A stretch of 64,000 bases of DNA from a virus (taxonomy: Duplodnaviria; Heunggongvirae; Uroviricota; Caudoviricetes). This document shows, piece after piece, positions 4,199 to 64,000 of this stretch. The stretch spans positions 1 to 64,000 of IMG/VR virus record IMGVR_UViG_3300012007_000008. One strand, 5' to 3'. The position numbers and the translations under genes were made by a program. Below the pieces are notes generated by a model. That model ran no database searches. It was not told where the DNA came from and saw only the letters and a program-made list of their open reading frames with translations. The first letter of the stretch is position 1. Each line of letters opens with the position of its first letter.

Positions 4199-4210
4199 AA
4201 AGAGGATGAG

Positions 4211-12492: not shown

Positions 12493-12595
12493 ATAACCAT
12501 CAGATGGGGCTGGTGTTTTAAATAGAGTTAATTCAATTACCGCCTTAGGGCGTTTATATATATGAAACTAAAAATATAGATAAGGAGATAACTTT

Positions 12596-13540: not shown

Positions 13541-13561
13541 TCATAAAAGGAGATAGAAAAT

Positions 13562-14038: not shown

Positions 14039-14093
14039 TATTGAGAAGTAATAGGAGAGGCCAAAACCTCTCCTATAATTTTAAGGAGTAATT

Positions 14094-14561: not shown

Positions 14562-14574
14562 AGGAGGTGAATAA

Positions 14575-15933: not shown

Positions 15934-15935
15934 TC

Positions 15936-16952: not shown

Positions 16953-17002
16953 AGAAAGGTTGGACTATGACGAGGGAGGAGGAGCAGTTCTTAATAAGTA
17001 CG

Positions 17003-21245: not shown

Positions 21246-21254
21246 GGTAGTTTA

Positions 21255-21821
21255 ATGTTAAAAGAATTTAGATACTCCGAAACATAGAAAAAATAGATCA
21301 TCAAGAGTATGACTATTCTCCATGACACGAGATAGAAGTGCAACGAGCATATACTTGATTATTTTGACAGGAAAGGAATTCCGCATAAAGAACGTGCGTT
21401 AGAGCAAGGCGATTATTCTTTTATGATTCCTAAAAACGAGAAACTATCTATCTTAAGAGACTTGATATTTGACAAGTAGATAGTTATAGAAAGGAAAAGA
21501 AACCTTGATGAAATCGCCGGGAATCTCACAAATAAAAAAGATAAAAAGACCGGAGAGATATTAGACCATCGAGACAGATTTGAAAAGGAACTAACCTTAG
21601 CTCCGCATAATAAAATACTTCTCATAGAGAATGCAGATTATGAAGACTTGTCAGAAGCCAGATATCGTAGCGAATACAATAATCAGGCTTTTATGGCAAG
21701 CCTTCATACGTTCTGGTGGAGATATAATCTGCCGATATTCTTTATGAAGAATGATAAATATTCTGGAGAATTTATTTATAAAACATTTGGATACTATTTT
21801 AAAACAGTAATTTTGAGGTAA
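21255..21821 (+). CDS. ERCC4/XPF-like nuclease, possible resolvase, with five in-frame TAG codons
   Basis: hand translation gives GDYSF...IVIERKRNLDEIAGNL (ERK motif); missed by the ORF track because of the TAGs. Confidence 0.55.
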
Positions 21822-21823
21822 AT

Positions 21824-22630
21824 ATGGATAGAGATTTTAAGAGAAAAGTATTTGGCCTTATGGCTGACAAGTTTGAAACTGATGCATTTCGAGATTACTT
21901 CCTCGATCTATGTGCCGAACTTCCTGATTATGTATTCACAATACCGAGTTCAACATCCAAGAAATACCATTCTAAGCAACAATGTGTTACTCCTGGCGGC
22001 CAGATAATTCATGTATATCTGTTCAGTAGTATTCTGAATCACTTGCTTAGGCTTGAACATAATAGGGAAATCTTCGGTACGCCGGAGATCCGCGATGCAA
22101 TGAGAGTCGTCCCAATGGCTCACGACGCTATTAAGTGTGGCTGGAATGGCAGCAAATATACTGTTCCGAATCACCCTAAGCTGGCGGCGGAATGGATCTT
22201 AACAGTAAAAACGGAACACGACATCCCCAAGAGGTACAAGGAAGCTATTGCTGGGATGTGCGAAGCTCACTCTGGCGAATGGAATAAAGACCGCTCTGGC
22301 AACGAAATCATGAAAAAGCCAGAGAATCAAATGGAATTCCTGATACACGAATGCGATATCTTAGCGAGCCGTTCAGACATTATCTGGGATGTACCAAGAG
22401 AACTATCTGAAATAATGCACTTTGGTGAAGATGATGATCCTGGTTATGAGAAGATCACATGGAAGAATTATACCCTTCCATTTGGAAAGTATAAGGGAAA
22501 GACGTGGGAACAGATCGACAACGATGATCCAGGTTATATACAGTGGGCGCTTGATAAATTGGAAGCGACGAACGTAAAGAAATATCTTATTGATTATATT
22601 AAACTGAAGGAAGTAGCAAATAAGTCATGA
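21824..22630 (+). CDS. HD-domain phosphohydrolase with DUF3820-like C-terminal domain
   Basis: His...HD (PMAHDAIK) motifs; C-terminal PFGKYKGKTWEQIDNDDPGYIQWAL. Confidence 0.55.
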   Translation: MDRDFKRKVFGLMADKFETDAFRDYFLDLCAELPDYVFTIPSSTSKKYHSKQQCVTPGGQIIHVYLFSSILNHLLRLEHNREIFGTPEIRDAMRVVPMAHDAIKCGWNGSKYTVPNHPKLAAEWILTVKTEHDIPKRYKEAIAGMCEAHSGEWNKDRSGNEIMKKPENQMEFLIHECDILASRSDIIWDVPRELSEIMHFGEDDDPGYEKITWKNYTLPFGKYKGKTWEQIDNDDPGYIQWALDKLEATNVKKYLIDYIKLKEVANKS

Positions 22631-22842
22631 ACAGAAAAAATTTTGAATGGGATGAATAGAACGGACAGTGGGAAGGATGCGGAAATTTGGACGATTACGA
22701 TTGTATAGAACTTTGGAATACTTGCTCTCACTGCGACCATTGTTACTTAGAAAATGATAATACGATGGTTTGCGAATTGGACGATCATATAGTAAGTGTA
22801 GATACTATTTGTGATTATAATATGAAAAGTGAATTGCTATAA
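22627..22842 (+). CDS. small Cys-rich protein with one in-frame TAG
   Basis: ATGA overlap with upstream gene; CxxC motifs. Confidence 0.4.
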
Positions 22843-22922
22843 TGATTTCATAATTTTCGGACTTTGTTCAAGTGTAAATTTAGAAGTATATAAGGCAATA
22901 AAATATAGGAAGGGAAAGATAA

Positions 22923-23132
22923 ATGAATTACGATGACGTTAGAAATACGATCATGAAGAGGATTGATGAGAAAAAACAGGCTGTTATAGAACACATAAAT
23001 TCGGCGGCTAAACTCGAAGATTGGGAAGAGATTAAGGATGAGATCGAATTTATCCTCCAGGCCCATGGCGCAGTGATGGTAATCGACCACACACGAGAGA
23101 TCGGAGAAAAAGCTACCGAATCATCCAATTAA
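22923..23132 (+). CDS. hypothetical protein
   Basis: 69-aa ORF, SD AGGAAGGGAAAG. Confidence 0.4.
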   Translation: MNYDDVRNTIMKRIDEKKQAVIEHINSAAKLEDWEEIKDEIEFILQAHGAVMVIDHTREIGEKATESSN

Positions 23133-23157
23133 CATGTATATACAAAAGGAGGAACTT

Positions 23158-23415
23158 ATGGCAAGAAGAAGAGGAAAGAAGAAGCCCGTCGAGAAGAAGA
23201 ATAATGTTCAGACAATCAAGAAGAAGGGAAACGGATCCGACTTGAAGCCGACACGTTGTTCGCTTTGCCGTTTTGCAACGGATTCGAGAGGCAATGTCTG
23301 TTATGCCAGAGCAAGACTTCTTCCTGAATTCGAGAAGGTAGATTGTGTTCCGGCATTGATTCATTACTCTGATATGCAGCTAGAGACATTGATCTCCGAA
23401 AGGAGGTTTTCATGA
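23158..23415 (+). CDS. basic zinc-ribbon protein
   Basis: MARRRGKKKP...CSLC...C; SD AAGGAGG. Confidence 0.45.
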   Translation: MARRRGKKKPVEKKNNVQTIKKKGNGSDLKPTRCSLCRFATDSRGNVCYARARLLPEFEKVDCVPALIHYSDMQLETLISERRFS

Positions 23416-23663
23416 AGCTGCGGAATTTGGACAAAGATGATCTATACAGATTCTTCAAAGTCGTTGATAAATGCGAGGAAGATGTTGAACTCGTCGTTAA
23501 AGACGAGATGAGACTGAACCTGAAGAGCAAGCTCAGCCAGTTTGTTTCTCTCGTTGGACTTTTCTCACAGGTAAAAGTGCCGGAAATTGAGATTTACTGT
23601 AAGTCTAACCGCGACGTAAACAGGCTGGTTGATTTTCTTGTCGCAGACGGAGGGACGTATTGA
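23412..23663 (+). CDS. hypothetical protein
   Basis: 83-aa ORF, ATGA overlap. Confidence 0.4.
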   Translation: MKLRNLDKDDLYRFFKVVDKCEEDVELVVKDEMRLNLKSKLSQFVSLVGLFSQVKVPEIEIYCKSNRDVNRLVDFLVADGGTY

Positions 23664-23666
23664 ATT

Positions 23667-23900
23667 ATGAATATGCATATCAGGCTGGACTATGAAAATC
23701 CTGACATTTTTAAGGAGTTTTCTTCCGACGTAAATTCATTCAAGTCTGACATTGATGCAAAATCCGGGAGTATCCACGTAGACGCGAAAAGCCTTCTCGC
23801 TATTGTGGCTCTCGGAAAACCTGAATTCGATGTAACTATTGTTAGCTCAGACGCCGCTGAAATAGCGAGGTTTAAGAAAGTGATGGAGAAGTATACGTGA
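23667..23900 (+). CDS. hypothetical protein
   Basis: 77-aa ORF. Confidence 0.4.
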   Translation: MNMHIRLDYENPDIFKEFSSDVNSFKSDIDAKSGSIHVDAKSLLAIVALGKPEFDVTIVSSDAAEIARFKKVMEKYT

Positions 23901-24568
23901 AATTTGAAAACTGGCAGTGCTTCAATTTTATTGGGGCAATACAAGGCGCAAGAAATCCTTTTAACTCTTGGGAGAGGATGGATTCTTATGAACAAAACGG
24001 AAACGATGTTGCCGATTAGATTGAACCTAATAACATAATTATCGGGCCAAATGACCTGAAATTATGTCAGAATTTGTTGAAATCAGCAACAAAAGATCAT
24101 AGAGATTCACATTCAAAATTCTTACGGCAAATTATGGTGAGTGTTGATGTAACAGCGCCACTTTACTTTTTCAAGGAATGGGACACCTACAAGGTGGCGA
24201 CCACAACCAACTCCACGTCAACAATGTGGAAGCTTGCCTCTACCCCTATTACAAGAGAATGCTTTGAATTCGGTGATTATTCAGAAAACGAGGGTCTCGA
24301 TGACTTCTGGAGTGAATTGATAAATTATCTGGAACTTATCAGACAAACATTTAATAAAACAAAAGACAAGGCTGATTGGAAGGAATTGATCCGCCTTTTG
24401 CCGGAATCGTGGTTACAGACCAGACACTGGACTGGAAACTATCAGGTTCTGCGCAACATGTATTTTGACAGACGCAATCACAAGCTCACTGAATGGAACA
24501 AGGATTTTGTCGGTTGGGTTGAGCAACTTCCTTATGCAAAGGAACTCATCATGTACGAAGGAGACTAA
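23897..24568 (+). CDS. hypothetical protein with one in-frame TAG; GTG start
   Basis: SD GGAGAAG before GTG 23897; continues through TAG into the 24074 ORF. Confidence 0.45.
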
Positions 24569-24624
24569 ACAGTGAATGGATGTAACATAAAGCATATAGA
24601 AGAAACCGGCAAGGAGGAAGAGAA

Positions 24625-25218
24625 GTGTTTGTGATCATTGGCCGTAGCTGCTCCGGTAAGGACACTGTAGCTAAGGAGCTGGAGCGCCGTGGATACTTCC
24701 GTTACCGGACATACACGACTCGTCCTCAGCGTCCAGGGGAGCCGGATGATGCCTACAAGTTCGTTTCAGAACCTGTGTTTCTTGACATGGTTGGTCACGA
24801 CGAGTTCATGGAATATCGCAAATACACCGTCGCAGATGGCAGTGTATGGTACTACGGTTCAGAATGGCCTGTTGTAGGCAAAACTGACAACAAAAACTTT
24901 ATCATTCTTACACCGGACGGTTATCTGAACGCAAAGGATAAACTACCGGATGGATCTTACTGTATCTTGATCGACTGTAATAATGCAACGATTTTGAAGA
25001 GGTTTAAAAAGCGAGGAGATAGCCGGGAGGAATCTACCAGAAGATTTGAGACTGACGTTAAAGATTTTCAGAAAGCGTACCACATTGCAGATCACGTTTT
25101 CTATAACAATGACGGAAGGGATATCGAAGAACTGGCGGATGAGATAGAGGGATTCCTAGAGACAGAAAAGACTCAGGTTCGCGGGATTTATCCTCACGAC
25201 GGTTATCCACATGATTGA
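24625..25218 (+). CDS. P-loop nucleotide kinase, guanylate-kinase-like
   Basis: Walker A GRSCSGKDT; Gmk signature YTTRPQRPGE...YKFVS. Confidence 0.6.
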   Translation: MFVIIGRSCSGKDTVAKELERRGYFRYRTYTTRPQRPGEPDDAYKFVSEPVFLDMVGHDEFMEYRKYTVADGSVWYYGSEWPVVGKTDNKNFIILTPDGYLNAKDKLPDGSYCILIDCNNATILKRFKKRGDSREESTRRFETDVKDFQKAYHIADHVFYNNDGRDIEELADEIEGFLETEKTQVRGIYPHDGYPHD

Positions 25219-25423
25219 GGAGGTTGGTATGGCGGGCATGTCTATGTGTCAAAGTAAAACATGTAAGAAACGTTACTATTGCTATCGTTATAAGGCAGTT
25301 CCAGATAGACTCCAAGGATATTCTGTTGATGATCCGTCAGACCCCAAGGATGGATGTGATTTTTTCTGGGACATGAGACCTTCGGAGGAAAAGAATGACG
25401 GAATACAATTATAGAGGGTTTAA
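25211..25423 (+). CDS. Cys-rich hypothetical protein; terminal TAG read through for 2 codons
   Basis: 67-aa ORF ends TAG AGG GTT TAA. Confidence 0.35.
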
Positions 25424-25577
25424 GGCGATCATCCGGTTTGACGAAAAGGAAAATCTTTATGTCGGAAGAGTGGTCGGTACAGAAATTCATTTTGAGGGTG
25501 CCACTGAAGACTTAGCTAAGTCTCATTGTAGGCGCTCTATTAACGCTTTTATCGACTTCAGAAATGAAGGTCGATAA
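25395..25577 (+). CDS. hypothetical protein, HicB/UPF0150-like fold suspected
   Basis: 60-aa ORF. Confidence 0.3.
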   Translation: MTEYNYRGFKAIIRFDEKENLYVGRVVGTEIHFEGATEDLAKSHCRRSINAFIDFRNEGR

Positions 25578-25608
25578 TTTGTAATATTAAAGAAGGAGGT
25601 AGTAGTTT

Positions 25609-28600
25609 ATGAGGGTAATCAAGAGAGACGGAAGAAAAGTTGAATTTCAAGAAGACAAGGTAAAAATAGCCGTCTTAAAAGCCTTCAAGCAAATAGACGG
25701 AGAAACAACAGAGTATGCCAGAGATAAAGCTGATGCCATAGCCAAATATATAAAAAGCATGGATAAGGATCTGAATGTTGAAGAAATCCAGGATATTGTA
25801 GAATCAAAGCTGATGGCTTGTAACCGTAAAGACGTCGCAAAGGCATATATTATATATAGAAACGACAGAAGCCGAGAGCGTGAGAAGAATAGCTCTTTGA
25901 TGAAAAAAGTTGGCGTAAAGATTAAGGCCGCTAATATTCAGAACCAGAATGCCAACGTTGATGAAAAGTCGTTTGGTGGAAGGATCGGAGAGGCCAGCGG
26001 GGAACTCCTTCGTCAGTATGCTATCGACAATCTTTTATCTGACCTTTCCCGGAATAATCATTTGAACAATGAAATCTATATTCATGACCTAGATCATTAC
26101 GCGGTTGGTGATCATAATTGTTTGTCGATTCCATTTGATAAGCTTTTAGCGGAGGGATTCAATACTAGACAGACAGACGTCCGTCCGGCTCAATCGGTAA
26201 ATACGGCTTTTCAGTTGGTTGCCGTGATCTTCCAGCTACAGTCTCTTCAGCAATTTGGCGGAGTATCTGCCACGCATATAGATCACACAATGGTGCCTTA
26301 TGTCAGGAAGAGCTTTTATAAGCATTATGTCACCGAATATTTGAAGCGCACAAAAGAGTTTCTTGATCTGGATCTGATGAATTATCTCTTTGATACGTAT
26401 GAAGATGAAATCGGGGTTGTCAGGAACAGATTCGACGATTGGGTCGAAGAACATAAAGACGAATTCACTGAGAAGACCGGACTTAGATTTGAGGATTTTA
26501 CTCTCGACAATAAAAATGGTCTTAATCAAGAGCTATTCCAAGCAGCTTTATTCGACACGATCAATGAAACATATCAGGCAGTTGAAGGAATGTATCACAA
26601 CCTAAAAATATTTGGGCGACTCAATAGTGATGTTGAGAACATAGCTGCCTAAACGGGGGAACTCTCACGGAGACAATCCCGTGCTAAATTTGCATCGTTA
26701 TAAAGCGGATACCATTTGAAATATTATAACGATACACTAAACGCCTAACGACTATCCACATGAAACGTGGAGTACACCCAAGCGGGTGGAAATGGCAGCC
26801 TCCTATTTTATAGGATGAAGATATAGTCTAATCTTTATGACAACATAAAGAAGTTCATAAGAGAACTGCATAGGAGTAGCGAACCTATGTGAATATTAAT
26901 GAAATACATTGCAAAGCAGATCAGGGAATCAATTGCCATTCACTTCTATTAATTACGGTACATGCATAACCCCGGAAGGGCGTATGGTAACAAAAGCAAT
27001 TTTAGATGTTTCAATTAAGGGTATTGGTGTGTTGCATAAAACGTCGATCTTCCCATGTGGAATATTCCAGTGTATGAAAGGTGTAAACCGTAAACCGGGT
27101 GATCCAAATTATGATCTGTTTAGGTTGGCGCTTAAATCAACGGCGCGACGTCTCTATCCAAATTATGCCAACGTAGACTGGTCTGGAAACGCCGGATACG
27201 ATCCGAATGATCCGAAAACTTATTTCTCAACGATGGGTAGGTGTAAGCTACAGCTCATCTAAAATCTTTTGAACCCCGCCCGGGGGTGTCGCAAAAGCGG
27301 CTAACGGTTAGGACTCATTGAGTTGAGACCGTGCTAAATAATCAAGAATGGTAAGTAACTAGGAGATGGTATTTTGGTTATTTACAAAATTACAAATATT
27401 ATAAATGGTAAAATTTATGTTGGTAAAACAACAAGATCTCTGAAAGATAGATGGAATCGACATATATACGACGCACTTTCGAATCGTCTTGATACACATT
27501 TTAGTAGAGCAATACGAAAATATGGCCCAGAAAACTTTTAGACTTAGATAATTGATTCTGCAAAATCAGATGAAGAGTTATCTAAAAAAGAAAAATACTG
27601 GATAAATTATTTTAACTCGTGTGAGAACGGATACAATGAAACGATAGGTGGGGACGGTGGAAATACATATATGTCGAAGACCACAGAAGAGATGGATAAA
27701 ATAAAACAGAAGATACGTTCTACGAAAATCGGAAAAGATAATCCAATGGCAAGACCAATCAAATTATTAAGCATGAAAACAGGCGAGGAACTTCATTTTG
27801 GGAGTGCAGCGTAGGTAAGAGATTATTTTGGTGAATCAAACCATAATTTTGTCACCAGAAGAGTAAAACGTTAGATTAAATATTTGTTTAAAGGCGAATG
27901 GAATATAGCATACGAAGAAGATGAATACCCTACGGATGTTAGGTTTGATAAATCAATAAGAAAAAGTTGCCACATCCTTGTATAGGATTTGTATACTGGA
28001 GAAGTCGGTGAATTTGTAAGTTATGCATCTGCGGAAAGACATTTTGGCGTTCGAAACAAAAAGTTTAGTGGAAAAGCTTACAAACACACGTGTAAAGAAT
28101 TTGTTGTTGAAAGTAGATATAAAATTACCATTCTTGATTAAAAGTGTATCGACTATCCCTGATGAATGTATGGGAGTAGGGCTGGAGATAGGCACCAGCG
28201 ATGTTTTAGGAAACGAAGCGTCTGAAAACCGAAGCGGAAGACTGCGGAGAAATCCTGCGAAAGCATAAATGAATTAACATTTAGTAGAAGATATAGTCAG
28301 TTCCTCTGGCGATAGAGGAGGGAAACGTGTAGAACTGTGAATGGGGCAGACATCAACGCCGAACCTGGAACAAACCCTCAAACGAAAGACGGGCGCGGTA
28401 ACATCTGTCCTGTGACAATTATTATGCCTACATTGGCCATGGAGGCGTCTGGAGAAGTAGGCGACAAGGACATCAATTCTTTCATGGAAATTCTCGACCA
28501 GAAAATCCATGAGGCAAAAGATATGCTCATTGAAAGGTATGAGTACATCTGTAGTCAGTCGCCGGATTCGGCTAAATTCATGTATGAGAATGGTACAATG

Positions 28601-46823: not shown

Positions 46824-46933
46824 ATCAGTTTGGAAATATTATAGCCATTGAAGATGATGGAACTCGGATACAGATTCGCGGCGATGACGGAAGAATATAT
46901 GCCGGTTGGACTAAGGACGTGGTTCTACTGTGA
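46760..46933 (+). CDS. small ORF (57 aa) overlapping the end of the 46287 gene
   Basis: MSDYKEPRIGQR...; lies at the left border of the TnpB element. Confidence 0.2.
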   Translation: MSDYKEPRIGQRCFFAFRAGINQFGNIIAIEDDGTRIQIRGDDGRIYAGWTKDVVLL

Positions 46934-47031
46934 GTCTAATTTGTGGAAATACTGGCGCTCCAGTTGGTAAAAACTGTGTTTTGTCCACGCTACAGAAGAA
47001 AAATATTCAATATCCCTGGATAGGTGGTAAT

Positions 47032-48123
47032 ATGAATAAAGGTGTTAAATTTAGAGCGTACCCAAATAAGGATCAACAAAACTTAATAAATCAAACATTC
47101 GGATGTTGTAGATTGATTTATAATAAAGGTCTCGCGATGCGAAACGATGCTTTTGAGAACGGTCAAAAGGTTGGATATACGCAGACATCTTCAATGCTTA
47201 CCGATCTTAAGAAGCAAGATGAATATTCATTCTTGAGAGATGTCGATTCGATTGCTCTGCAACAGTCATTAAGGGATTTGGATCGTGGATTCAAGAATTT
47301 CTTCGAGAAACGGACGAAGCATCCGAGATTTAAGAGCAAACATAATAATAGACAGTCGTATAGGACAATTAACCAAAAGGATAATATACGTATTGTTGGA
47401 AAATATATCAAGTTACCAAAGATAGGATATGTGAAGATTAAACAGTCAATGGATGTTGGACATATCAATAACGTGACTATTGAGAAGACTCCCACTGACA
47501 AATATTATGTAGTTCTGAATGTCGATTTCGAACCAGAGTTTCGTCAGAATGATGGATGTATGATTGGTATAGATGTCGGTATAAAGGAATTCTATTCTGA
47601 CAGTAATGGGAATATTATTGAAAACCCAAAATACCTTGAGAAGTCCTCACGTAAACTCCGCAGGGAACAAAGAAGACTCTCTCGGAAGCAGAAAGGAAGT
47701 AGTAATAGGAATAAACAGCGGATCAGGGTTGCCAGAATGCATGAGAAGATTACAAATCAAAGAAATGATTTTTTACAGAAGCAGACAACTATGCTTGTGC
47801 GTGAAAACCAAACCATCTGCATAGAGGATCTGAACGTAAGAGGGATGCTTCGTAACCATAGGCTTGCGAAGTCAATATCAAGTGCATCTTGGTCGAAATT
47901 TTTTACAATATTGGAGTATAAAGCGATGTGGTACGGAAATGATATAATTAGAGTACCGACCATGTATCCAAGTAGTCAGACTTGTTCTTGTTGTGGATAT
48001 AAAAATCCATTAGTAAAGAATCTGGCAGTCAGAGAATGGGAGTGCCCAAGATGTCATACCATACATGGCAGAGATAAGAACGCTGCGATTAATATTTTGA
48101 ACAAAGGGCTGTCAGTAGCCTAA
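47032..48123 (+). CDS. tnpB: IS200/IS605-family TnpB (OrfB); no TnpA present
   Basis: RuvC-I IGIDVGIKEF, RuvC-II ICIEDLNV, zinc finger CSCCGY...CPRCH, RuvC-III RDKNAAINI. Confidence 0.8.
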   Translation: MNKGVKFRAYPNKDQQNLINQTFGCCRLIYNKGLAMRNDAFENGQKVGYTQTSSMLTDLKKQDEYSFLRDVDSIALQQSLRDLDRGFKNFFEKRTKHPRFKSKHNNRQSYRTINQKDNIRIVGKYIKLPKIGYVKIKQSMDVGHINNVTIEKTPTDKYYVVLNVDFEPEFRQNDGCMIGIDVGIKEFYSDSNGNIIENPKYLEKSSRKLRREQRRLSRKQKGSSNRNKQRIRVARMHEKITNQRNDFLQKQTTMLVRENQTICIEDLNVRGMLRNHRLAKSISSASWSKFFTILEYKAMWYGNDIIRVPTMYPSSQTCSCCGYKNPLVKNLAVREWECPRCHTIHGRDKNAAINILNKGLSVA

Positions 48124-51899: not shown

Positions 51900-52048
51900 A
51901 CAAGAGAGCCGGGAGACTGGCTCTCTTTGTAACGGAAGGAGACAAAATGGCACAAGAAGCAATACAGGAAAACCTGTGGGGATGTTTATAGAAGTTGCGC
52001 CAGATAGAAATCGATGGTATAATTGAACCAGAAGCGGCGCAAACATTA

Positions 52049-53233
52049 ATGGCAAGTAAGAAAGAGAGGATCCTTAAGCAATACCCACCTAGGCAAGCAG
52101 CGGATGGTTCATGGTACGTAAACATCAGGTTTGCCCCAGGGCCAAACGGCAGGAAGGCAATAAGGAAGGGGAGTAAAGAAACCCTTGAAAAGGCGATTAT
52201 AGAATTCGTCGGGGAAAACTTGAAGCCAAAAGAAAAGAAAGGCACTCATTTAAGACTCAACTATAAGGATGCTTTTGAAAGATGGATCAGAGCACAACAG
52301 TACAGAAACAAGAATACAGAGGGTAGGAATCGCCGGGAATATCGCAGGTTTTTTGAGAAATTTGAATTAGGCCGTGAAATAGCTAAAATGGACATAAGGG
52401 CGATCACGTCCTTCCAGATCGAGCAGTTCATGAGCCAAGCGATCCAGGAATATGACCTGACGGCAAGAAAGGCGCTGGAAAACTACAGGATGTTTTTTGA
52501 GTTCGTGTACCGTCAGGCTGTGGTAGACAGGGTCGTTAAACCTGATGAAAATCCTTGTACGTATATCATCGAAAATAGATTCCTCCAGTTCGGAAGGTCT
52601 GAGTCCGATAGGAAAGAAGAATCAAGGACTATTGATCCTGACACAATGAGCATCCTTGACATAGCAATCAGAAAGGACCATGAGAGAAAAGAGGATTACA
52701 TGCCACCATACGCCTGTGAACTTGCGTTTCTGACTGGCATGAGGGTCGGGGAACTTAGCGGATTAACCTGGGACCACATCGATATGGACAAAGGCGCTAT
52801 CTATATAGTTCAGAGCATGAAATACGACTTGGCTACCAAAGAGTACTACATCTCTTCAACGAAAAACAAAAAGAAACGTGTGTTCCCTATCACGGATGAT
52901 ATTCGCGAACTCCTGGAAAGGATTATGTCAATTCAGGATAAGTATGGCAAAACAGAAAACTATGTCTTTTCTACGGCAAAGAAAGCATCAACGAATAGAC
53001 AGCTTAGTGACTACCTTATGAACAAGAGGAAGCAGTACGGTATCACGATTCCGGTAAGCATTCATGCAGCGAGAAGGACGCTTAACAGCAACATGGCGGC
53101 CCAGGGCGTGTCCGTGGACCTCAGGGCGTCCCTCCTCGGTCATATCCCGAGGGTAAATGAAACGAATTACACTTACGATTTGGTATCCTTGGAGGAAAAA
53201 ACAAAAGTGGTTGCAAAAGCTGGGAAACGGTGA
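52049..53233 (+). CDS. tyrosine integrase (second copy)
   Basis: TGMRVGEL box I; HAARRT (HxxR); LLGH; catalytic Tyr in NYTYD. Confidence 0.8.
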   Translation: MASKKERILKQYPPRQAADGSWYVNIRFAPGPNGRKAIRKGSKETLEKAIIEFVGENLKPKEKKGTHLRLNYKDAFERWIRAQQYRNKNTEGRNRREYRRFFEKFELGREIAKMDIRAITSFQIEQFMSQAIQEYDLTARKALENYRMFFEFVYRQAVVDRVVKPDENPCTYIIENRFLQFGRSESDRKEESRTIDPDTMSILDIAIRKDHERKEDYMPPYACELAFLTGMRVGELSGLTWDHIDMDKGAIYIVQSMKYDLATKEYYISSTKNKKKRVFPITDDIRELLERIMSIQDKYGKTENYVFSTAKKASTNRQLSDYLMNKRKQYGITIPVSIHAARRTLNSNMAAQGVSVDLRASLLGHIPRVNETNYTYDLVSLEEKTKVVAKAGKR

Positions 53234-53589: not shown

Positions 53590-54696
53590 TTACCGCTTTC
53601 TCAGCATTTCCACTGAACTCTTCAGTTTCTTGATCGCATAATCCAAATCTTCCTGCGTAGTATCTCTGCCTAACGTCAGGCGCAGAGAGCCGTTTGCTTC
53701 TTCTTCACTCAGCCCTATCGCGGTAAGGACATGGCTTGGTTCTCCACTTCCGGTCTCACAGGCCGATCCTGAAGAGCAGTAGATGTCGTACATAGAGAGC
53801 AGTTCAACCAGTTCTTCTCCGCGGATCCCGTCAAAGACGAAGCTGGCGTTGTTTGGCAACCTGTATACAGGATCTCCGGTCAGCTTACTGCCAGGGATCT
53901 CGGTTAAGACATTCTTGATCAGGTGTGACCTTAGTTCGATCAACCGTGGGGATTCAGTATGGATGGCGGCACAGGATATCTCAGCCGCCTTAGCCATCGC
54001 AACGATCCCGAATACGTTCTCGGTTCCGGCGCGGAGTCCTCGTTCCTGACGACCGCCCTGAAGAAGAGGATGTAGGTCGGTATCCTTTCTGACATACAGG
54101 AAGCCGACGCCCTTAGGCCCGCCGAACTTATGAGCGGAGGCAGAGATAAAGTCTACCTTGATCTCATTTACGTTCAGGATCTGATGTCCATAATACTGCG
54201 TCGCGTCAGTATGGAATTTAACGCCAAAATCGCGGCATAGAGCGGCGATCTCCTTTATAGGTTCCACAGTACCTATTTCGTTGTTGGCCGCCATAACGGA
54301 CACGAGAGGCGTGTATACGTGGCTCTCAATCGTCCTCTTTACATCGTCAGGATCTACTAGACCAGTCTCACTGACGGGTAGCGAATATATCCCTACTTCA
54401 CACGCTGGCATAAGTATCGCGTGGTGTTCGATTGGCGTAGTAATCACGTTGTCGAATGACTGGATCACTGTGTTGTTCGCCTCAGTAGCCCCTGAAGTAA
54501 AGAATATCTCTTCAGGCTCAGCACCGAGAGTATCCGCGATTGTCTACCGCGCTTGTTCTATAGCCGCCCTGGCTTCAATCCCCGGCACATAAGCAGCGGA
54601 AGGATTGTGCCAGTGTTCATATAGATACGGCAGACCCGCCTCTATCGCTTCTGGATAAGGACGGGTAGTTGCCGCATTGTCTAAATATACGTTCAT
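53590..54696 (-). CDS. cysteine desulfurase (IscS/NifS/DndA-like, class V aminotransferase) with in-frame TAG at 54544-54546
   Basis: rebuilt N-terminus MNVYLDNAATTRPYPEAIEAG...EQAR[TAG]TIADTLGAEPEEIFFTSGATEANN; PLP region SASAHKFGGPKGVGFLYV. Confidence 0.75.
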
Positions 54697-54731: not shown

Positions 54732-56585
54732 TCAGTTTCGCCTGTTCCTAATCACGTAAGCGAGAACCACCAACACCGCGAAAGAGAGCAGTAGGGCGCA
54801 TACAAACCTCATGATCGGAGAGTCATCGCCGGTCTTCGGTATCACGACAAGCTCTTCCGTGGCGGCCTTGATGGCCACTTCGGTGTCTCTGTTGGCACCT
54901 TTAACTTCGCTGATCTTCTTGGTTCTATGTGTTTCTTCGGTCTTTTTTCCCCGGCTTTCGCCCATGGCTCCGCCATCCTGTTTCTTCGTTTCTTCTTCCG
55001 GCGGAAGAGTTTCGTTAGGCGTTGTTTCCTTGGCCGGGATATAGACGGGGACATAGGACGGGTTATTGACTACGGGGATAGGAGAGGTAGGCGTTTCTGT
55101 CACGTTAACTTCTGTAGGCAAGATAACCGTTTCAGTTTCCGTGGTGAGAGATATCTGAGACTCTGTGATTGATATCTGAGGCTCTGTGATTGATATCTCA
55201 GTCTCTCTGAGCGATATTTGGGTCTCAGGTATAAGTTCAGAGATCGGTGGATCTGTCTCTTCCGTTTCGACAAGTTTTGGTTCCGTTTCTATCACGGGCT
55301 GTTCTGTTTCAATAACCGTCACGGGCTGTTCTGTTTCAATAACCGTGATATCAGTTTCGATTAACGGGATCTCTGTTGGTTGTTCGGTTTGAACCGGCTC
55401 AGTCTGCCTCGGCTCAGTATCAGGGATCACAATCTCTTCGGTTTCTATGATCGGAATGATTTCTGACTGTGTTTCCGACTGCTCTGAGATAAGTTCCGAT
55501 TCCTCCGACTGTGTTTCCGGTTCTTCCGACTGTGTTTCCGGTTCCGGTTCAGGGATCCGGGTAGATCCTTGGTAAGGCCACATATGTCCCTCAGCGAGAG
55601 TAGAGATATTCTGACCGAATAAACAGCCATTCGTATTGCCGCCGTTGATCTGAATATCGGCGTAAGGCGCGAGGACACACCCGATCTCTGGCGTCAGTTC
55701 CGTAGGTATCACTACTGTATTAGCGTTCGGATAGACGATACAGATCGGTTCGCTGCCGCCGTTTTCTTCACCCTGGGATAGCCCTACAACCTGAGGGTTC
55801 AGTACGGTTCCTGAGTCGAGTACGTTTATAATAGTACCTTCTCCAGTCGGGTTCCCGGTAAGCCGGATTTTTACAAAATTTCCCTGAACTAGAAGATTAG
55901 TGATAGTACCGCGCTGGATCTCTATTTCTTGCCAGTTCCAGTCTGGCTTAACAGTTGGTGCGAGAGAAGATAGGTTCTGAATACGATAGACTTCAGATGT
56001 TGCCGCCTCGTAGATCCGCGCCCAGTCCACGTAATTGTCCGTAACGATGATCGGATCGTCATGGTTGTACCAGTTCATCCCGTTCAGGGTGGTTCCGTCG
56101 ACAGTATTGGAAGAGCCGACGTAGAGTGGGATCCCGCTGTATTTGGATCTTCCGTTAGGGCCTCCTGGCTTACTCACGTATCCGGCGATGTAGCTCGGAG
56201 CGACAGTATAGGGTGAGTCTGCGAAGTTGTTATAGTTCCCGGACAGGTCGCCCTGAACTAGAAGATTGCCCATACAGTGCTGGTTGATGTCGGCGTTGCC
56301 TAAGGCTATCACACCGTAGTAGTTCATGAGATAGTCGAGAGAGTAGTCCTGAAGAGTAGGATTATCAGGAGTTTCTTCAATCAGATTCTCTGGTAATGTT
56401 TCTTCTTCGGGAGGGGTTTCGTAGTAATTATCGGGAACGATTTCTTCGTAAGGCTCAGTCTACGCCGCTTCGGTTACATACGGAATCGCAACCTTGAACA
56501 TCAGGATCAGGGTCAGGATACCGATTAAACAGATCACCGCAGACGGCACGATTTCCTTCAGGAATTCGGTCACCTTCTTTATCAT
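54732..56585 (-). CDS. LPxTG-type (IPKTG) cell-wall-anchored surface protein with Thr/Glu/Gln-rich repeats and in-frame TAG at 56460-56462
   Basis: SD AAGGAGGTGA; signal peptide MIKKVTEFLKEIVPSAVICLIGILTLILMF; C-terminal IPKTG then hydrophobic stretch then RNRRN; DNA tandem repeats 55140-55560. Confidence 0.65.
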
Positions 56586-56997: not shown

Positions 56998-58224
56998 TTA
57001 TTCTGTACAAGAAGCAGGTCTTGTGCCAAGATTGGTTAGATCGATCTCTTCTAGACATAGTTCGTCTTTAAGAGCGAGGTATTGGTCTTCATAGACCCAG
57101 ATGTCTCCGTAGGAATAGTGGGTTTTGGCTTCAACCGCATATTGGACTGAACCTCCATACTTATCAATAGCCACCTTTAAGTATGGTAGTTTTTCTATAA
57201 ATTTACCATCGTGAAAACGTAACACTGGGCGTAGTCTTTTGTTCTTCCACGGTTCAACATCTTTCCCATGTGTTTCTTCGTCATAGTAGAATAAGAATCC
57301 TTTCATATGATGGTATATGTTCTTACTATTACACGCGTGTTCAATACTTCTTGGTGACACATTTGTATATTCTGAAGCGGCGTCACTATTCTGAAATGTT
57401 TGAATTAACTTCCCGGACATATCGTAAACACAGACCTTTTTCCGATTGGGATTTTTCTTTGGACCAAATTTTCTATTGATAAGCTTTTGAACGGCTTCCT
57501 CACTGTAGTCCGGTTCGAAAAACCAGAAAAACCCATACGCAGATATGCTAGTGCCACAACAGCATTGTCTGATTTGTTCGTATTCTTTTGGCGTATAACC
57601 ATCGATTTTATGAAGGTCGTCATATATTTGTATTAGTGTGCCATCATAATCAACTTTATACACTTTAGGATATTTTTTAACAGTATTTCCTGGAAATCCT
57701 GTATATGGTGGCATCTTGTCAACTTTTTCAAAAGACCACTGAAAACCATGAGCTTGTTTCCGATTCTTACTAGCTGCTTCACCAATCTTTTTCCCTTTTA
57801 TATGAAGAGTTTCCGCCGCCTCACTAATTGTACCCCATTCTTTGACAAAATCTCCCTACCAAGTATACTGGAATACGGATTTACTCATAGGGTGTTCTAC
57901 TCCATATAATCCATTTCCTGTGTCTCCACCTTTTGCAATATTGTATGCGATATCTGGATTTCTTAGGTCAAATTTGGCAATTAAATAAATCTATATCATC
58001 TTGGCTTGTTCTTTCTCCAGATTTTCAATAAGAATAACATGATCAAAGTTATCCCAGCCGTATTTTTGAATTGCTTTCCAAAAGTGATGAGAACCTACGT
58101 ATTGTCTTCCATTTGAACTCCATCTTTGTTTTGTGTTCTTTGAAATTCCGACATAATATTTCCCGTTAATTTTATTTCTGTGATAGTAAACACACCACCT
58201 ATTTTCACTAATATAATGTTCCAT
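56998..58224 (-). CDS. free-standing GIY-YIG homing endonuclease with two in-frame TAG codons
   Basis: N-terminus WCVYYHRNKINGKYYVGISKNTKQRW...KYGWDNF; reads through TAG into the NUMOD-like C-terminal ORF (56998-57714); RBS region is the AATGAAAGGATTATATTATG motif. Confidence 0.6.
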
Positions 58225-59991: not shown

Positions 59992-60059
59992 CGTGGATAC
60001 CTCCTTTCCTATACTTACTTCTCAAAACAGAAGAGAAGTAAACCCTCAATCTATCGAGT

Positions 60060-60088
60060 TGACAAATTCAATTTGCAGGAATAAGATA
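60060..60088 (+). promoter_or_regulatory. sigma70-like promoter
   Basis: TTGACA, 17-nt spacer, TAAGAT. Confidence 0.35.
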
Positions 60089-60099
60089 GGAAATGGCAG

Positions 60100-60993
60100 A
60101 TGTTTGAACTAATCCTGAAGGGAGAGAAGGGTATGAAGAGTAAGAGAAGATTGCTACTGGCGGCGTTACTGATGGTGATCTTGACGGTACTGTTAGCCGT
60201 ACCAGTCTTAGCGAAGCCGAAACTGGACGAGAAGAAGGATGAAAAATCAAATCTACAATTACATGCCGCTATATCTGTAATGAATGGAAAGTATGCAGAT
60301 ATTTATTTACCTCAAGATCATGCAACCTATCATCAGGGCGATATTTTCAAATACCACTTCTCAGTTCAAGACACATGGTCAACTTTATACACGCGAGCTT
60401 TATTCGGAATTATGGATGAAGAAGGAAATTTCCAATTCTTTAATTATACGGAAGTTATTCCAAAAAATTCCACAAAAGAATTTTCAGGAGAAGTATTAAC
60501 AAATGATATTCCTGTTGGGAAATATACATTTGGAGTATGTAACTATTGTTTTGAGGATGCTGCTGGAAATAGAGAATCATGGCGTGTAAATGTAGATGAT
60601 CTTCCGTATGTAGAGGTTGAGATTGAAATTTTACCTCCGTTACCACCGGAACCAGCACCAGAACCGGAACCAACACCTGAACCAGTTAGTTCTCCTGGCG
60701 CAGATACTATACAGAGAGAAACACCGTCCATATTTAATGTGAAAGCTAAAAAGAACAGGATTTTTGTCTTTTGGGAAAAAGTTAAAACCCCGACTCAGAT
60801 GAAATCTATTGAAATTGAATATGCTACAAATCCAAAGTTTACTAAAAATGTTAGTATAGTATCTGTTAATCCAAATAAAACGAGAACAACATTGAAATTG
60901 AAAAGAAAAAAGACATACTATATCCGAATTCGATATAAATGGAGCGACGGGGTGTCTGCGTGGAGTGCGAATAAGAAAGTTAGAACAAAATAA
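60100..60993 (+). CDS. secreted protein with Pro-rich linker and C-terminal fibronectin-III/Ig-like domain
   Basis: signal peptide MKSKRRLLLAALLMVILTVLLAVPVLA; linker LPPLPPEPAPEPEPTPEP. Confidence 0.55.
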   Translation: MFELILKGEKGMKSKRRLLLAALLMVILTVLLAVPVLAKPKLDEKKDEKSNLQLHAAISVMNGKYADIYLPQDHATYHQGDIFKYHFSVQDTWSTLYTRALFGIMDEEGNFQFFNYTEVIPKNSTKEFSGEVLTNDIPVGKYTFGVCNYCFEDAAGNRESWRVNVDDLPYVEVEIEILPPLPPEPAPEPEPTPEPVSSPGADTIQRETPSIFNVKAKKNRIFVFWEKVKTPTQMKSIEIEYATNPKFTKNVSIVSVNPNKTRTTLKLKRKKTYYIRIRYKWSDGVSAWSANKKVRTK

Positions 60994-61161
60994 AAAATAG
61001 CCATAAAAACTTTGAAAAGACTAAAGAAAACATCGGGTCGGCGTATATCGAGGGTTATTTGCGATAACCGGAAGCGGAATGCTTTGCGGTAGTAATACAC
61101 GTGAATAAAGTTTTCCGTAACCCGACCAGTCTGATCCTGTTATTCCTTCCTTACTAGCAAA

Positions 61162-61497
61162 GTGTTATCATATTGTAGCAATAGCAATACGACAACATGC
61201 TTTAACAGTAAGGAGGAATGTGCTATGGACGAACAGACTATGTTCAAGCTACTGGAAATCTACAACGCGACGCAGGATATCTGGAAGATCCAGGAGATGC
61301 TGATCGGAATCCCTTGCGACGTAGGATACGGCGAGGGCATCCTGGGTGAGCTGGACTACACTCAGGAAATCATCTCGAAGTTCTCGCCGGTTTACGATCC
61401 GACAGAAGATTACGAAGAATCAAAATTCTGGCAGATCCTGGACAACCGGGAGATAGATAATCATGTGAAAGCTCGGCTCCTTTTGGGGCTTGTGTGA
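61162..61497 (+). CDS. hypothetical acidic protein
   Basis: 111 aa, SD TAAGGAGGAA. Confidence 0.45.
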   Translation: MLSYCSNSNTTTCFNSKEECAMDEQTMFKLLEIYNATQDIWKIQEMLIGIPCDVGYGEGILGELDYTQEIISKFSPVYDPTEDYEESKFWQILDNREIDNHVKARLLLGLV

Positions 61498-61613
61498 GTG
61501 GGTTTTATTGGGCGGCATCTGCTTCGGCGGGTGCCGTTTCCGTATAGATTCCGAAAAGATGAGTTTTCGGAAGAAATAAAAAAGACCCTCGCGAAGAGAG
61601 CCTTTCTTACTGT

Positions 61614-61835
61614 TCAGTTCTTCAGCATTTCCAGGACTTCCTCAACCGTCTTGCCGGATTCCCTGACGGCTGCCATGAGTGTCGTTATCTGTTCGGCTTC
61701 TTTCTCCTTCAGGAGTCCTTTGAGTTCGTCCTTCTTTTCCTTGACGGTTTCGTTGAGTTCCTTCAGTTCGGCTTCGAGATTCTCGATCCTCTGGTCCAAC
61801 GTGAGTTCGTCTTTTCTTTTACGTCCTCTGGGCAT
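61614..61835 (-). CDS. small basic coiled-coil protein (73 aa), divergent from the cassette locus
   Basis: SD GGAAGGAG; MPRGRKRKDELTLDQRIENLEAELKEL; preferred over the low-complexity plus-strand ORF 61498-61857. Confidence 0.45.
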   Translation of the reverse strand: MPRGRKRKDELTLDQRIENLEAELKELNETVKEKKDELKGLLKEKEAEQITTLMAAVRESGKTVEEVLEMLKN

Positions 61836-61893
61836 GGCAAACACTCCTTCCTTTTGAGTTATGGTTTTGCCATAATAATAAGGGAGGAGAGAG

Positions 61894-62175
61894 GTGCGTG
61901 TCAACTGGTTAAATTCCAGTATTTCAAATCTAAACTCAAAGGGTATAATAACTAGTAGTACGCAACTTTCTGTATCTCTACAGCCTAATGAGGTCAAATA
62001 TTATGAGACAGTTAAACCAGATGGGTTATACGCGTGGATCATGTACGGTATAGATACTGGAACCTGGGCTATTTGTGCTAATGATTTTAGTAATTATGGG
62101 TTAAGAGTAAAAAATAATAATGCCACACAGAGTTCTACTAGCAACATAAGAATGTGGTGGTTTAGATTTGGTTAA
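61894..62175 (+). CDS. expressed copy (cassette 1) of a cassette-family protein
   Basis: only cassette with RBS AAGGGAGGAGAGAG and GTG start; codons 5-8 are a variant junction TTAAATTCCAGTATT. Confidence 0.5.
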   Translation: MRVNWLNSSISNLNSKGIITSSTQLSVSLQPNEVKYYETVKPDGLYAWIMYGIDTGTWAICANDFSNYGLRVKNNNATQSSTSNIRMWWFRFG

Positions 62176-62212
62176 ACTCTTGCTTTGTATTCTTTGTTGA
62201 AAAGTATAATAA

Positions 62213-62490
62213 ATTCCAGAATAACTCCTATGTTTCAAAAGAGGAGAGTTACATTACATGGAGATGGAGAGAGTAAAACAGGATTCGTATACCATTATGG
62301 TAATGCCCCATCTATAAGTGGATATACACCAGTAGGAATTGTAGGGTATAACTGTGGTGGAGGATCTGCTTTCGGACTAAATATGTTTGATTGTTATTGT
62401 AACCCTGAGGGTAGGTTTGCTATAAATACACAGGGTTCAATAGGTTCTAGCCTATCCATTGATGTTGAGATCTTGTATCTCCGTAATTAA
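62213..62490 (+). other. silent cassette 2 (~92 codons, no RBS)
   Basis: opens NSRITPMFQKRR..., ends TAA inside the next repeat. Confidence 0.45.
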
Positions 62491-62783
62491 ATTCCAGAAT
62501 AAACAGCAATAACTCAGATATAATTGCAATAAATGATACAAGATATTATAAATCTAATGATCTAAATTTGATTGGAGAATTAAAAAGTGGAATATATGCA
62601 TACTCTTCTGATTCGTCTAATGCGCCTACGACAAATGGAGGAGTAGTGTTACACGCAAGAACCTTTGCTGACGGAGCGCAAGGATTTCAAATTGCGCATG
62701 CTAACAACCAAACCTTCTTAAGTGTTAGACTTCTTAACGCTGGTTCATGGAAACCATGGATGAAATTTACTATTGCTACTTAA
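62490..62783 (+). other. silent cassette 3
   Basis: NSRINSNNSD...KFTIAT then TAA-repeat. Confidence 0.45.
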
Positions 62784-63274
62784 ATTCCAGAACAAAAGGG
62801 TTTTTTAATTCTGAATCTTCCCCGAACCATAACGGTATAAAGATAGACTTTGCCTACAGAGAGAAGGAATACTCTTTGCAGTTTCATGTTGATAGAAATA
62901 ACTCGAATACTTGGATGACAATGTATGAACTGCCAGGGTATACAGCCATATGGACATTGACGAATCCGGCACTTGTAACGAGTGGCAGTCTAAATTATGC
63001 AATATCAGTCAAAACACCTGAATGGCAATGTATATGGCGTCGTATGGGAAAACTGGTAGTCATTAGTGGTTATTTCAACCCAATAAATGAAGTGGCAATG
63101 CATACAACCTTAGTAAACCTACCATTCTCCATTTCAGGAGAATACTTCGAATCCCCTAATTCATCGGGTGCGAGTCCCGGAAGACTTCATATTGTCAGTT
63201 CAAAACTCTAGAACGAATACGTGCTTAAGGCTGGGCAGTTCTATAGCTATACAATAATTGGATTCACGGCTTGA
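62783..63274 (+). other. silent cassette 4 (contains in-frame TAG at 63209)
   Basis: NSRTKGFF...HIVSSKL[TAG]NEYVLKAGQFYSYTIIGFTA then TGA. Confidence 0.4.
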
Positions 63275-63285
63275 TGAATCAATGA

Positions 63286-63630
63286 AATTCCAGAATAGAG
63301 CCTATAGATGTGTCTGACCAATATACGAAAGTAACGACAAACGTATCATTTTCCGCATTACGCGCATATAAGTTTGGAAGATTGATACTATTGGACGTTG
63401 CTTTTGACTGTTCAAAGATATCAGGAGATACAAACCTCTTCTCACCAAACAACAATTCTGTGACACCAGTTGCTTCAACTTATATAGCTTTTGGAACGGG
63501 GCAGCATTCTTCGTTTTCAAATAAGAACTGTTATTTTACATATTATCAAGGTTTTTTCATGGTTGGCAATGGAGCGGGCGAAACGGGAGTGAGCTATAGA
63601 GTTCATACGTCATATGTCTCGCTTCAATAA
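63286..63630 (+). other. silent cassette 5
   Basis: NSRIEPIDVSDQ...YVSLQ then TAA-repeat. Confidence 0.45.
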
Positions 63631-63953
63631 ATTCCAGAAAAATGGAAGCATCGTTTCTCTATAAAGCCAACAGATCAACTGGTTCTTAGAGAGTGGTTTC
63701 TTTTATTGTTAATGCCGGAGTAAGTGATACAGATAAGAAAGTATATATGTTCTTTTCACACGGAAATGGTCATGCTACTATCGGATCTGTAATGTGCGTC
63801 GGAAAATATCCAACTGGCCATTGTTCTTTAGTATCAATGGTTTACAACAATGCATTTTCTGTTACAGCAACTTACGATGGAGGAACTACCTTATCTATTT
63901 CTACTACACCCTGGGACAGAGTATTTCTATTATCCCCGTATTATTGTGCATAA
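63630..63953 (+). other. silent cassette 6 (contains in-frame TAG)
   Basis: NSRKMEASFLYKANRSTGS[TAG]RVVSF...SPYYCA then TAA-repeat. Confidence 0.45.
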
Positions 63954-64000
63954 AATTCCAGAATAACCAACACCAATTCGAAGGTTAATACATTCTATAT
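63954..64000 (+). other. silent cassette 7, truncated by window end
   Basis: NSRITNTNSKVNTFY... Confidence 0.35.

Follow-up and report, generated by a model that had tools for sequence, protein, structure and literature searches.

The array of short coding segments at the end of the stretch analysed here (64,000 nucleotides, positions 1 to 64,000 of the Caudoviricetes record IMGVR_UViG_3300012007_000008 in IMG/VR; hereafter the window) is, with a probability of roughly 85%, the distal 2.1 kb of a ~6.7-kb multiple-inversion locus, a tail-fibre shufflon with 16 interchangeable tips in a phage that reads TAG as sense. The original prediction, made from the window, proposed that one expressed gene at 61894-62175 is followed by promoterless cassettes that switch at a short in-frame repeat, by deletion or gene conversion, in the manner of pilE/pilS or shufflon systems. 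The switching at the repeat and the likeness to a shufflon have held up on the complete locus, while the place of expression and the proposed route have had to be revised.

The window shows direct repeats only because it ends in the middle of the locus. Using the protein encoded at 60100-60993 we reached the source contig, ERZ964371 k127_265126 (174,889 bp, gut metagenome); the stretch of it referred to here as L001 is identical to the window over 13.9 kb, and a window coordinate equals the L001 coordinate plus 50099. A shufflon would be expected to hold at least three short sites in both orientations within one locus. L001 has 12 sites on the + strand (11812-15426), seven of them inside the window, and four inverted sites (17189, 17716, 18043 and 18396) that lie 3-4.5 kb past the window end, beyond a recombinase gene. 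The 11-mer site pattern gives 18 matches on L001 where 1.03 would be expected, and all 16 cassettes, 84-175 codons in length, are open in the same frame relative to their site. Almost the whole 4 kb of the array was left uncalled by gene callers. The part of the locus beyond the window is made up as follows, in L001 coordinates.

14152-15681, + strand: five further sites and cassettes
15771-16772, minus strand: gene for a 333-aa (amino acid) tyrosine recombinase (PF00589)
17189, 17716 and 18043, minus strand: sites of three silent cassettes
18052-18543, minus strand: 163-aa tail-fibre gene, with site 18396 after codon 46

The site is asymmetric, with the consensus T-A-AAATTCCAG-(A/T)-A-T over 44 distinct junctions, which can also be written TAAATTCCAG(A/T)AT. 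The same core and the same layout, in which + sites precede the recombinase and minus sites follow it, recur in nine further loci of related phages (recombinase 70-95% identical, 1 to 8 sites per contig), and the sites on the two sides of the recombinase point opposite ways in 11 of the 11 related-phage loci that hold the recombinase. GenBank phages gave no match to positions 60000-64000 by blastn or to the constant fibre N-terminus described below by tblastn, and no relative was found in IMG/VR using the cassette junction, the recombinase and the expression-site junction, or in a scan of JGI metagenomes. Among the collections searched, this shufflon lineage is visible only in ENA and Logan assemblies.

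Within the window the exact 9-mer AAATTCCAG occurs seven times, starting at 61911, 62211, 62489, 62782, 63285, 63629 and 63953; every copy is on the + strand in a scan of both strands of the 64 kb, where ~0.5 copies would be expected for a 9-mer, and no further copy is found on either strand outside 61911-63953. The 11-nt form is AAATTCCAGAA in six of the seven sites and AAATTCCAGTA in the site within the 61894-62175 open reading frame (ORF), which agrees with the variant junction described there in the original prediction. The features of this end of the window are listed below.

61614..61835, minus strand: gene for a 73-aa basic coiled-coil protein that borders the fixed distal end of the shufflon (ORF, relatives)
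61836..61910, no strand assigned: fixed distal flank, which bounds all invertible DNA on the outside (promoter scan, conserved blocks)
61911..61921, + strand: recombination site 1, distal terminal, AAATTCCAGTA
61912..62175, + strand: cassette 1, 87 codons and a stop, now joined to the distal flank (open frame)
62211..62221, + strand: recombination site 2, AAATTCCAGAA
62212..62490, + strand: cassette 2, 92 codons, its TAA overlapping site 3 (open frame)
62489..62499, + strand: recombination site 3
62490..62783, + strand: cassette 3, 97 codons, predicted tail-fibre knob-type beta-sandwich (homologues, AlphaFold fold matches)
62782..62792, + strand: recombination site 4, AAATTCCAGAAC
62783..63274, + strand: cassette 4, 163 codons, TAG at 63209-63211, ending in TGA (open frame)
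63285..63295, + strand: recombination site 5
63286..63630, + strand: cassette 5, 114 codons, its TAA overlapping site 6 (open frame)
63629..63639, + strand: recombination site 6, AAATTCCAGAAA
63630..63953, + strand: cassette 6, 107 codons, one in-frame TAG (open frame)
63953..63963, + strand: recombination site 7
63954..64000, + strand: beginning of cassette 7, truncated where the window stops; its full length on the source contig is 97 codons

Read in the frame AAT-TCC-AGx (Asn-Ser-Arg/Ser), the stretches after sites 1 to 6 run for 87, 92, 97, 163, 114 and 107 codons free of TAA and TGA, and the two alternative frames of the same six stretches contain 2-10 such stops apiece. No consistent start codon or ribosome-binding site (RBS) was found after the window sites, so the description of the segments as coding cassettes delimited by the repeat and lacking their own starts is borne out. 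It had also been claimed that every repeat overlaps the TAA of the preceding cassette; this is true for four of the six downstream sites, but not for 62211 and 63285, where the preceding frames end at 62175 and at TGATGA (63272-63277). The two in-frame TAG codons that had been reported were both located, one at 63209-63211 and one within 63630-63953, in two complete cassettes, in keeping with the TAG-sense code of the phage. The cassettes are as unlike each other as had been noted: blastp among the window cassettes gave no mutual similarity at E<1e-4, and the DNA common to different cassettes is limited to 9-15 bp. Asn, Ser, Thr, Gly and Tyr together make up 43% of their residues, compared with 28.5% in the window's replication genes.

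The conserved expression site is predicted to be not the 61894-62175 ORF but the 163-aa tail-fibre gene at the far end of the locus. This gene has its own RBS and ATG, and its product reads MRFNMLGDANHAGPVRLSDTYDKEVGGA(TAG)TGIAASQKALYDAYNSL, followed by NSS and a variable part of 114 residues. The constant part of 46 codons (GPVRLSD...AASQKALYDAYNSL) passes directly into a site translated as Asn-Ser-Ser/Arg. In a database search, 23 proteins drawn from many samples shared this N-terminus; they are invariant through L46-N47-S48 and have no similarity beyond, which is the constant 5′ part fused in frame to alternative 3′ segments that a shufflon should produce. The first 46 codons are the attachment and neck part of the tail fibre. 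Silent cassettes, moreover, resemble what is found in expression sites elsewhere: the cassette at L001 17725 (minus strand) matches, over its full 175 residues and at 81% identity, the part of protein P0134 that comes right after the constant N-terminus in another phage, the first 58 residues of cassette 4 share 45% identity with the cassette that the related phage L008 has in its expression site, and the first 10 residues of cassette 1, NSSISNLNSK, are the start of the variable part that follows the constant N-terminus in P0142, from another phage. The 163-aa gene is the last in an operon of tail-fibre proteins, among them a 794-aa protein with many fibre-type repeats, a Laminin_G_3 protein of 624 aa and a giant of 3960 aa. 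Directly upstream of it are two paralogous acidic proteins of ~100 aa (L001 18533-19185, minus strand), which could be fibre assembly or adaptor factors.

The cassettes had been likened to receptor-binding tip domains, with structure prediction against fibre tips suggested as a check. Fold modelling of individual cassettes covered cassette 3 only, and here the comparison came out in favour of the likeness. Cassette 3 (62490-62780) has 27 homologues at E<=1e-3, several of them at the extreme C-terminus of small proteins and others inside proteins that match PHROG tail-fibre families. Its AlphaFold model is a small beta-sandwich (predicted local distance difference test, pLDDT, 80.4; predicted template modelling score, pTM, 0.69), for which the best solved fold matches are a phi812 baseplate protein, the R1/R2 pyocin fibres, phage K gp144 and the Mu fibre, and the best predicted viral matches include annotated tail fibres as well as many nameless proteins. 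None of the six window cassettes or their neighbours had a significant match in Pfam or PHROG scans, and cassette 4 has a weak match to phrog_35499. Going by the modelled fold, we predict that the cassettes are fibre knob modules.

The 333-aa protein encoded between the two sets of sites belongs to the PF00589 tyrosine class and is the only recombinase in the locus, rather than a serine-class enzyme of the Gin, Cin, Pin or Min kind. It scores 206.8 bits against a XerA-type model, just under the cut-off of 220, and 180.8 and 153.1 bits against XerC and XerD; the Xer models align to residues 61-329, and the precomputed Pfam domains are PF13495 and PF00589 only. From these alignments the enzyme appears to be arm-less and Xer-like. 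The best NCBIfam model carries the name 'tyrosine recombinase/integron integrase', and integron-integrase models, whose cut-offs are 265 and 435 bits, reach 72 and 53. An integron was considered and rejected, as the IntI models stay below cut-off and the sites are 9-15 bp long with no attC-like imperfect palindromes. In deposited phage genomes the best matches to the recombinase are at most 35% identical and annotated as integrases.

Closer homologues are found in bacteria. Lachnospiraceae genomes encode recombinases of 43-57% identity flanked by alternating inverted 10-mers, and loci with 4-8 alternating inverted, locus-specific 10-mers around homologues of 36-54% identity were identified in Lachnospiraceae and other Clostridia (L021, L022, L024, L028, L029, L040, L042, L048-L050, L052, L054, L057, L059 and L062). 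At L029 (Acetatifactor muris DSM 23669, NZ_JANJZD010000039.1 13408-26394) there are tail-fibre-like ORFs beside the recombinase, including one of the same knob family, phrog_3971. These bacterial homologues were considered as hsdS (type I restriction-modification) invertases, which was rejected on the tail-fibre-like neighbours of L029, the one locus tested. The Clostridia loci look like simpler tyrosine-recombinase fibre invertons in prophages, and the enzyme family therefore seems to be dedicated to fibre switching in the prophages of Lachnospiraceae. No description of these invertons was found in the literature searched.

Rearrangement at the sites was seen in a relative. Contigs from different samples encode an identical recombinase, P0016, that is 76% identical to the recombinase of the locus, and they carry the same seven segments in two arrangements, A-B-C-D-E-F-G in L003 and L004 and A-B-D-C(inverted)-F-E-G in L005, L006 and L007. 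The segments are 99.7-100% identical, none is lost, and every breakpoint lies at AAATTCCAG. Across these isomers the polymorphic bases at -2 and +1 keep to their own flanks, which places the exchange inside the invariant 9 bp, a length that can accommodate the overlap region of a tyrosine recombinase (6-8 bp). A breadth-first search linked the two isomers by four inversions between oppositely oriented sites. Since the partner sites are inverted and the rearrangement proceeds without loss of a segment, we read it as site-specific inversion and not as the deletion or RecA-type gene conversion that had been proposed; the 9-15 bp shared by the cassettes likewise makes that part of the proposal probably wrong.

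For the phage of the window itself the evidence on isomers is indirect and comes from assembly ends. Logan assemblies are k=31 de Bruijn contigs (PMC12424806). In the window's own sample (SRR948090) the Logan contig breaks off precisely at the G of the L001 15426 site, and a Logan contig from another sample, with a 95% identical recombinase, begins exactly 30 nt (k-1) ahead of the G of the expression-site junction, a pattern that marks a node with several successors. A third contig stops one base past the site core, and most close homologues of the recombinase are on contigs of 1.1-2 kb.

The breakpoints of the isomers also bear on two other readings named in the original prediction, in which the cassettes would form a termination-reinitiation polycistron or the repeat would be a generic intergenic element of the host family. 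The stop codons that overlap four of the six downstream repeats are what such a polycistron would show. However, the repeat is confined to this locus, where it lies on both strands around the recombinase and always in one reading frame, the cassettes have no starts or RBS, the rearranged isomers break at the repeat, and it is there that the conserved N-terminus is fused to unrelated C-termini. We therefore reject the polycistron and give either version next to no credence. Because the isomers exist at the level of DNA, ribosomal hopping, frameshifting and an RNA-level splice site are unnecessary and were rejected as well. A diversity-generating retroelement was rejected too, given that there is no reverse transcriptase and no pair of template and variable repeats.

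In the mechanism that we propose, the recombinase would pair the copy at the expression site, or any other copy on the same side, with one that has the opposite orientation. Strand exchange would take place within AAATTCCAG and the DNA between the paired sites would be inverted, so that a different cassette comes to be fused in frame to the 46-aa constant part while the previous cassette is parked. A fusion of the constant N-terminus to a window cassette would, for example, read ...TACAATTCACTAAATTCCAGAATAACTCCTATG. A locus of this design with six sites has 240 isomers by computation, and one with 16 sites would have 2 x 15! DNA isomers, if all arrangements are reachable, and 16 expressed variants. 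Switching of host range would be the probable function.

Several observations weigh against this account. As the + sites are all on one side of the recombinase and the minus sites on the other, every inversion turns the recombinase gene around; nevertheless this gene and the constant fibre gene point the same way in each of the seven assemblies that hold both (L001, where the segment is 15426-17199, equivalent to 65525-67298 in window numbering, and L003, L005 and L008-L011), and unbiased inversion does not predict this. Possible reasons are state-dependent expression of the recombinase, selection, the assembler's choice of the dominant isomer, or excision and re-insertion. At least four inversions are needed between the two P0016 isomers, which is many for near-identical genomes. 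Junction heterogeneity in the window's own sample is read from one contig end, and no recombinant junction of the phage itself was seen directly. The AlphaFold model of the full 163-aa protein is poor (pLDDT 51), and receptor binding and a change in host range are predicted from fold and context.

Some of these observations would suit a rival with the same locus and the same recombinase, in which cassettes move mainly by excision of circles between direct repeats and their re-integration at another site, or by intermolecular exchange between replicating genomes. Such a route would leave the recombinase unflipped, as seen, and would turn the arrangement of L003 into that of L005 in two cycles of excision and re-insertion instead of four inversions; the long runs of direct repeats in the window are a substrate for excision, and the name of the best NCBIfam model includes integron integrases. 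Excision does not, however, explain why the sites are opposed at every recombinase locus of the related phages, an arrangement that inversion requires, and no isomer has a lost or duplicated segment. The integron-integrase models are far below cut-off (72 versus 265 bits) and there are no attC-like structured sites. We consider excision quite improbable as the main route and keep inversion as the preferred one.

The distal flank, where the original prediction had placed the expressed gene, can now be viewed as the fixed outer edge of the shufflon. The small basic coiled-coil gene reported to lie divergently at 61614-61835 is there, as a 73-aa ORF, and a 75%-identical counterpart of the same length is found beside the distal site in L003 and L005-L007; family scans gave only weak matches for the protein. 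The region upstream of 61894 had been called promoter-like. The best sigma-70-type match of the whole locus does lie here (TTGACA at 61904-61899, an 18-nt spacer and TATTAT at 61880-61875, scoring 11/12), but it belongs to the minus strand and faces the divergent 73-aa gene, and the promoter scan found none on the + strand upstream of 61894. The strong RBS and GTG start that had been described are present in the sense that the + strand carries a Shine-Dalgarno (SD)-like GGGAGGAG (GGAGG), a 6-nt spacer and an in-frame GTG at 61894, six codons 5′ of the Asn codon of site 1, with a predicted product that begins MRVNWLNSS. The exact-protein look-up of this ORF gave no match because gene callers do not call it. 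The blocks TGTCAAC and ATAATAATAA of the flank, as well as the minus-strand promoter, are conserved in L003, although conservation of the purine run has another explanation in that the run is the spacer of the minus-strand promoter. The ORF at 61894-62175 is most simply explained as the cassette now lying next to the fixed distal flank. Beside the distal site of L013 (~4180-4235, opposite strand) there is a tRNA-like T-arm sequence (GGATTCGAACCC), and the distal neighbourhood is therefore not conserved across related phages.

If the 61894-62175 ORF were instead the expressed gene, with its body replaced by deletion between direct repeats or by pilE/pilS-like gene conversion, the SD-like run, the spacing and the GTG near site 1 would be accounted for, and so would the in-frame distal starts in L010, L012 and L013. 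We find this very improbable. The conserved 46-aa fibre N-terminus is at the opposite end of the locus and a leader of six residues provides no attachment part, the codon that corresponds to the GTG is GTA in L003 and L005, so L003 has no in-frame start, and no + strand promoter is available. Deletion is also irreversible and would erode the array, and the relatives keep all segments, while the 9-15 bp shared between cassettes is too little for homologous gene conversion. Gene conversion of the pilE/pilS type was rejected on similar grounds, there being no extended shared blocks and no similarity at E<1e-4 beyond the site.

A milder version adds to the shufflon a second, weak expression site at the distal flank, from which the local cassette would be made as a free knob with a leader of 2-6 residues. 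In L001, L010, L012 and L013 an in-frame GTG or ATG precedes the distal site's Asn codon by 2-6 codons, and L008 has an SD run with an ATG after it, just within the cassette; the starts in L010, L012 and L013 make weak expression at the distal site possible. This is rather unlikely, though, as the nearby ATG in L003 and L005 is out of frame, the + strand promoter is missing and the purine run is accounted for by the promoter of the 73-aa gene, and an in-frame start at most six codons away would arise in about one quarter of random flanks. A bolder idea, which we regard as speculative and unlikely, is a two-ended, self-regulating shufflon that works as a parity-biased toggle, with the recombinase strong only in a short-lived flipped state, or equally by integron-like excision and re-insertion, and with the distal flank perhaps expressing the parked cassette as a free knob.

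Returning to the preferred inversion shufflon, the closest known system appears to be the Rin shufflon of Bifidobacterium prophages. In B. breve and B. longum it comprises a XerD-like invertase, a constant Rc, Rv cassettes and rix, an asymmetric site of 11 bp (Mavrich et al. 2018, PMC6109161). Both systems appear to combine a phage-encoded, arm-less, XerD-like tyrosine recombinase with a constant receptor-binding protein N-terminus (Rc), one of several dissimilar C-terminal cassettes (Rv), and a short asymmetric site of ~11 bp directly upstream of each variable cassette. They differ in the site (AAATTCCAGAA here and TTCCCTAACCC in Rin), in host phylum, in number (16 sites here, compared with 'several' small Rv genes), and in the position of the recombinase, which here lies between opposed arrays inside the invertible DNA whereas rin flanks its array. 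The carrier is here a TAG-recoded phage of at least 175 kb, and the likeness to Rin described here is one of organization.

The R64/IncI shufflon (Rci, sfx, pilV) shares multiple inversions by a tyrosine recombinase, partly conserved asymmetric sites and in-frame exchange of an adhesin C-terminus. R64 has seven sfx sites and four segments, with rci outside the segments. Its target is a plasmid-encoded pilus tip adhesin rather than a tail-fibre gene, and the recombinase described here, which scores Xer-like with no Rci-specific evidence, is set apart from Rci by model scores. The site is also unrelated to sfx, which is 31 nt long with a conserved block of 13 nt (PMC11852207). Min of p15B, Gin of Mu, Cin of P1 and Pin of e14 likewise exchange tail-fibre C-termini by inversion and change host range, but these are serine invertases with an enhancer and Fis, unlike the tyrosine recombinase here. 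Min has six crossover sites and 240 isomers, the same number as the modelled six-site relative.

Among gut phages, BV01-like phages of Phocaeicola have an active tail-fibre shufflon at the distal end of the fibre gene, with its configurations seen in read data (preprint PMC13596623). That system resembles ours in being phage-encoded and multi-cassette with a directional 10-bp motif and a flanking recombinase, and differs in having three cassettes, six isoforms, the motif TGGGAGAACT and a Bacteroidota host. The Lachnospiraceae prophage invertons share the recombinase family, short inverted 10-mers around the recombinase and tail-fibre PHROG neighbours, but usually have four (up to eight) alternating sites of other sequence. 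Silent promoterless cassettes that feed one expression site are also a feature of Neisseria pilE/pilS, where exchange is RecA-dependent over shared conserved blocks that are absent here, and integrons similarly mobilize cassettes using a tyrosine recombinase but need IntI with its extra domain, structured attC and attI, which are absent here too. The locus is thus a new and exceptionally large case of a kind already described and introduces no new principle.

TAG is a sense codon in this phage. Besides the cassettes, it is read through in the constant part of the fibre gene (L001 18457-18459) and in three genes of the window, the first of which has the conserved N-terminal motif YLDNAATT upstream of its in-frame TAG. 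Public gene calls translate TAG as Q, and no tRNA or suppressor tRNA genes were found in the 64-kb window. These genes, together with two ORFs elsewhere in the window, are as follows.

53590-54696, minus strand: NifS-like cysteine desulfurase gene with in-frame TAG
54732-56585, minus strand: adhesin-like gene with in-frame TAG
56998-58224, minus strand: GIY-YIG endonuclease gene with in-frame TAG
25609-26652, + strand: NrdD-like ORF
27359-28141, + strand: ORF downstream of the NrdD-like ORF

The NrdD-like ORF (anaerobic ribonucleotide reductase) covers profile positions 1-243 of 718, and the ORF downstream has five in-frame TAGs; the gene may have been split by recoding and/or an insertion, with the downstream ORF as its continuation. 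The adhesin-like gene encodes a 617-aa pAdhesive_15 protein with long acidic ETEQP-type repeats and a C-terminus of IPKTGDDS, a hydrophobic stretch and RNRRN. This is a wall anchor of the sortase LPXTG-like type, and points to a Gram-positive host. A canonical phage integrase (phrog_1, 51995-53233, + strand) and an insertion sequence-type transposase (phrog_506, 46930-48123, + strand) are encoded nearby, and the integrase suggests that the phage is temperate. The phage is at least 175 kb in size, and its host is probably a Gram-positive, Lachnospiraceae-like gut bacterium.

We know of no natural shufflon with a larger described repertoire than 16 interchangeable tips on one fibre gene. For annotation, the result means that ~4 kb of DNA left 'gene-free' by gene callers is a coding reserve, and for assembly it accounts for the fragmentation of metagenome contigs at such loci. 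The 9-bp core and the compact Xer-like invertase would be a new orthogonal pair of site and enzyme, of the type sought for synthetic shuffling tools (compare PMC11852207). Along with this locus, the Lachnospiraceae prophage invertons suggest that fibre switching by tyrosine recombinases is common in the phages of gut Firmicutes. If our reading is true, a single huge gut phage could hedge across many surface variants of its host.

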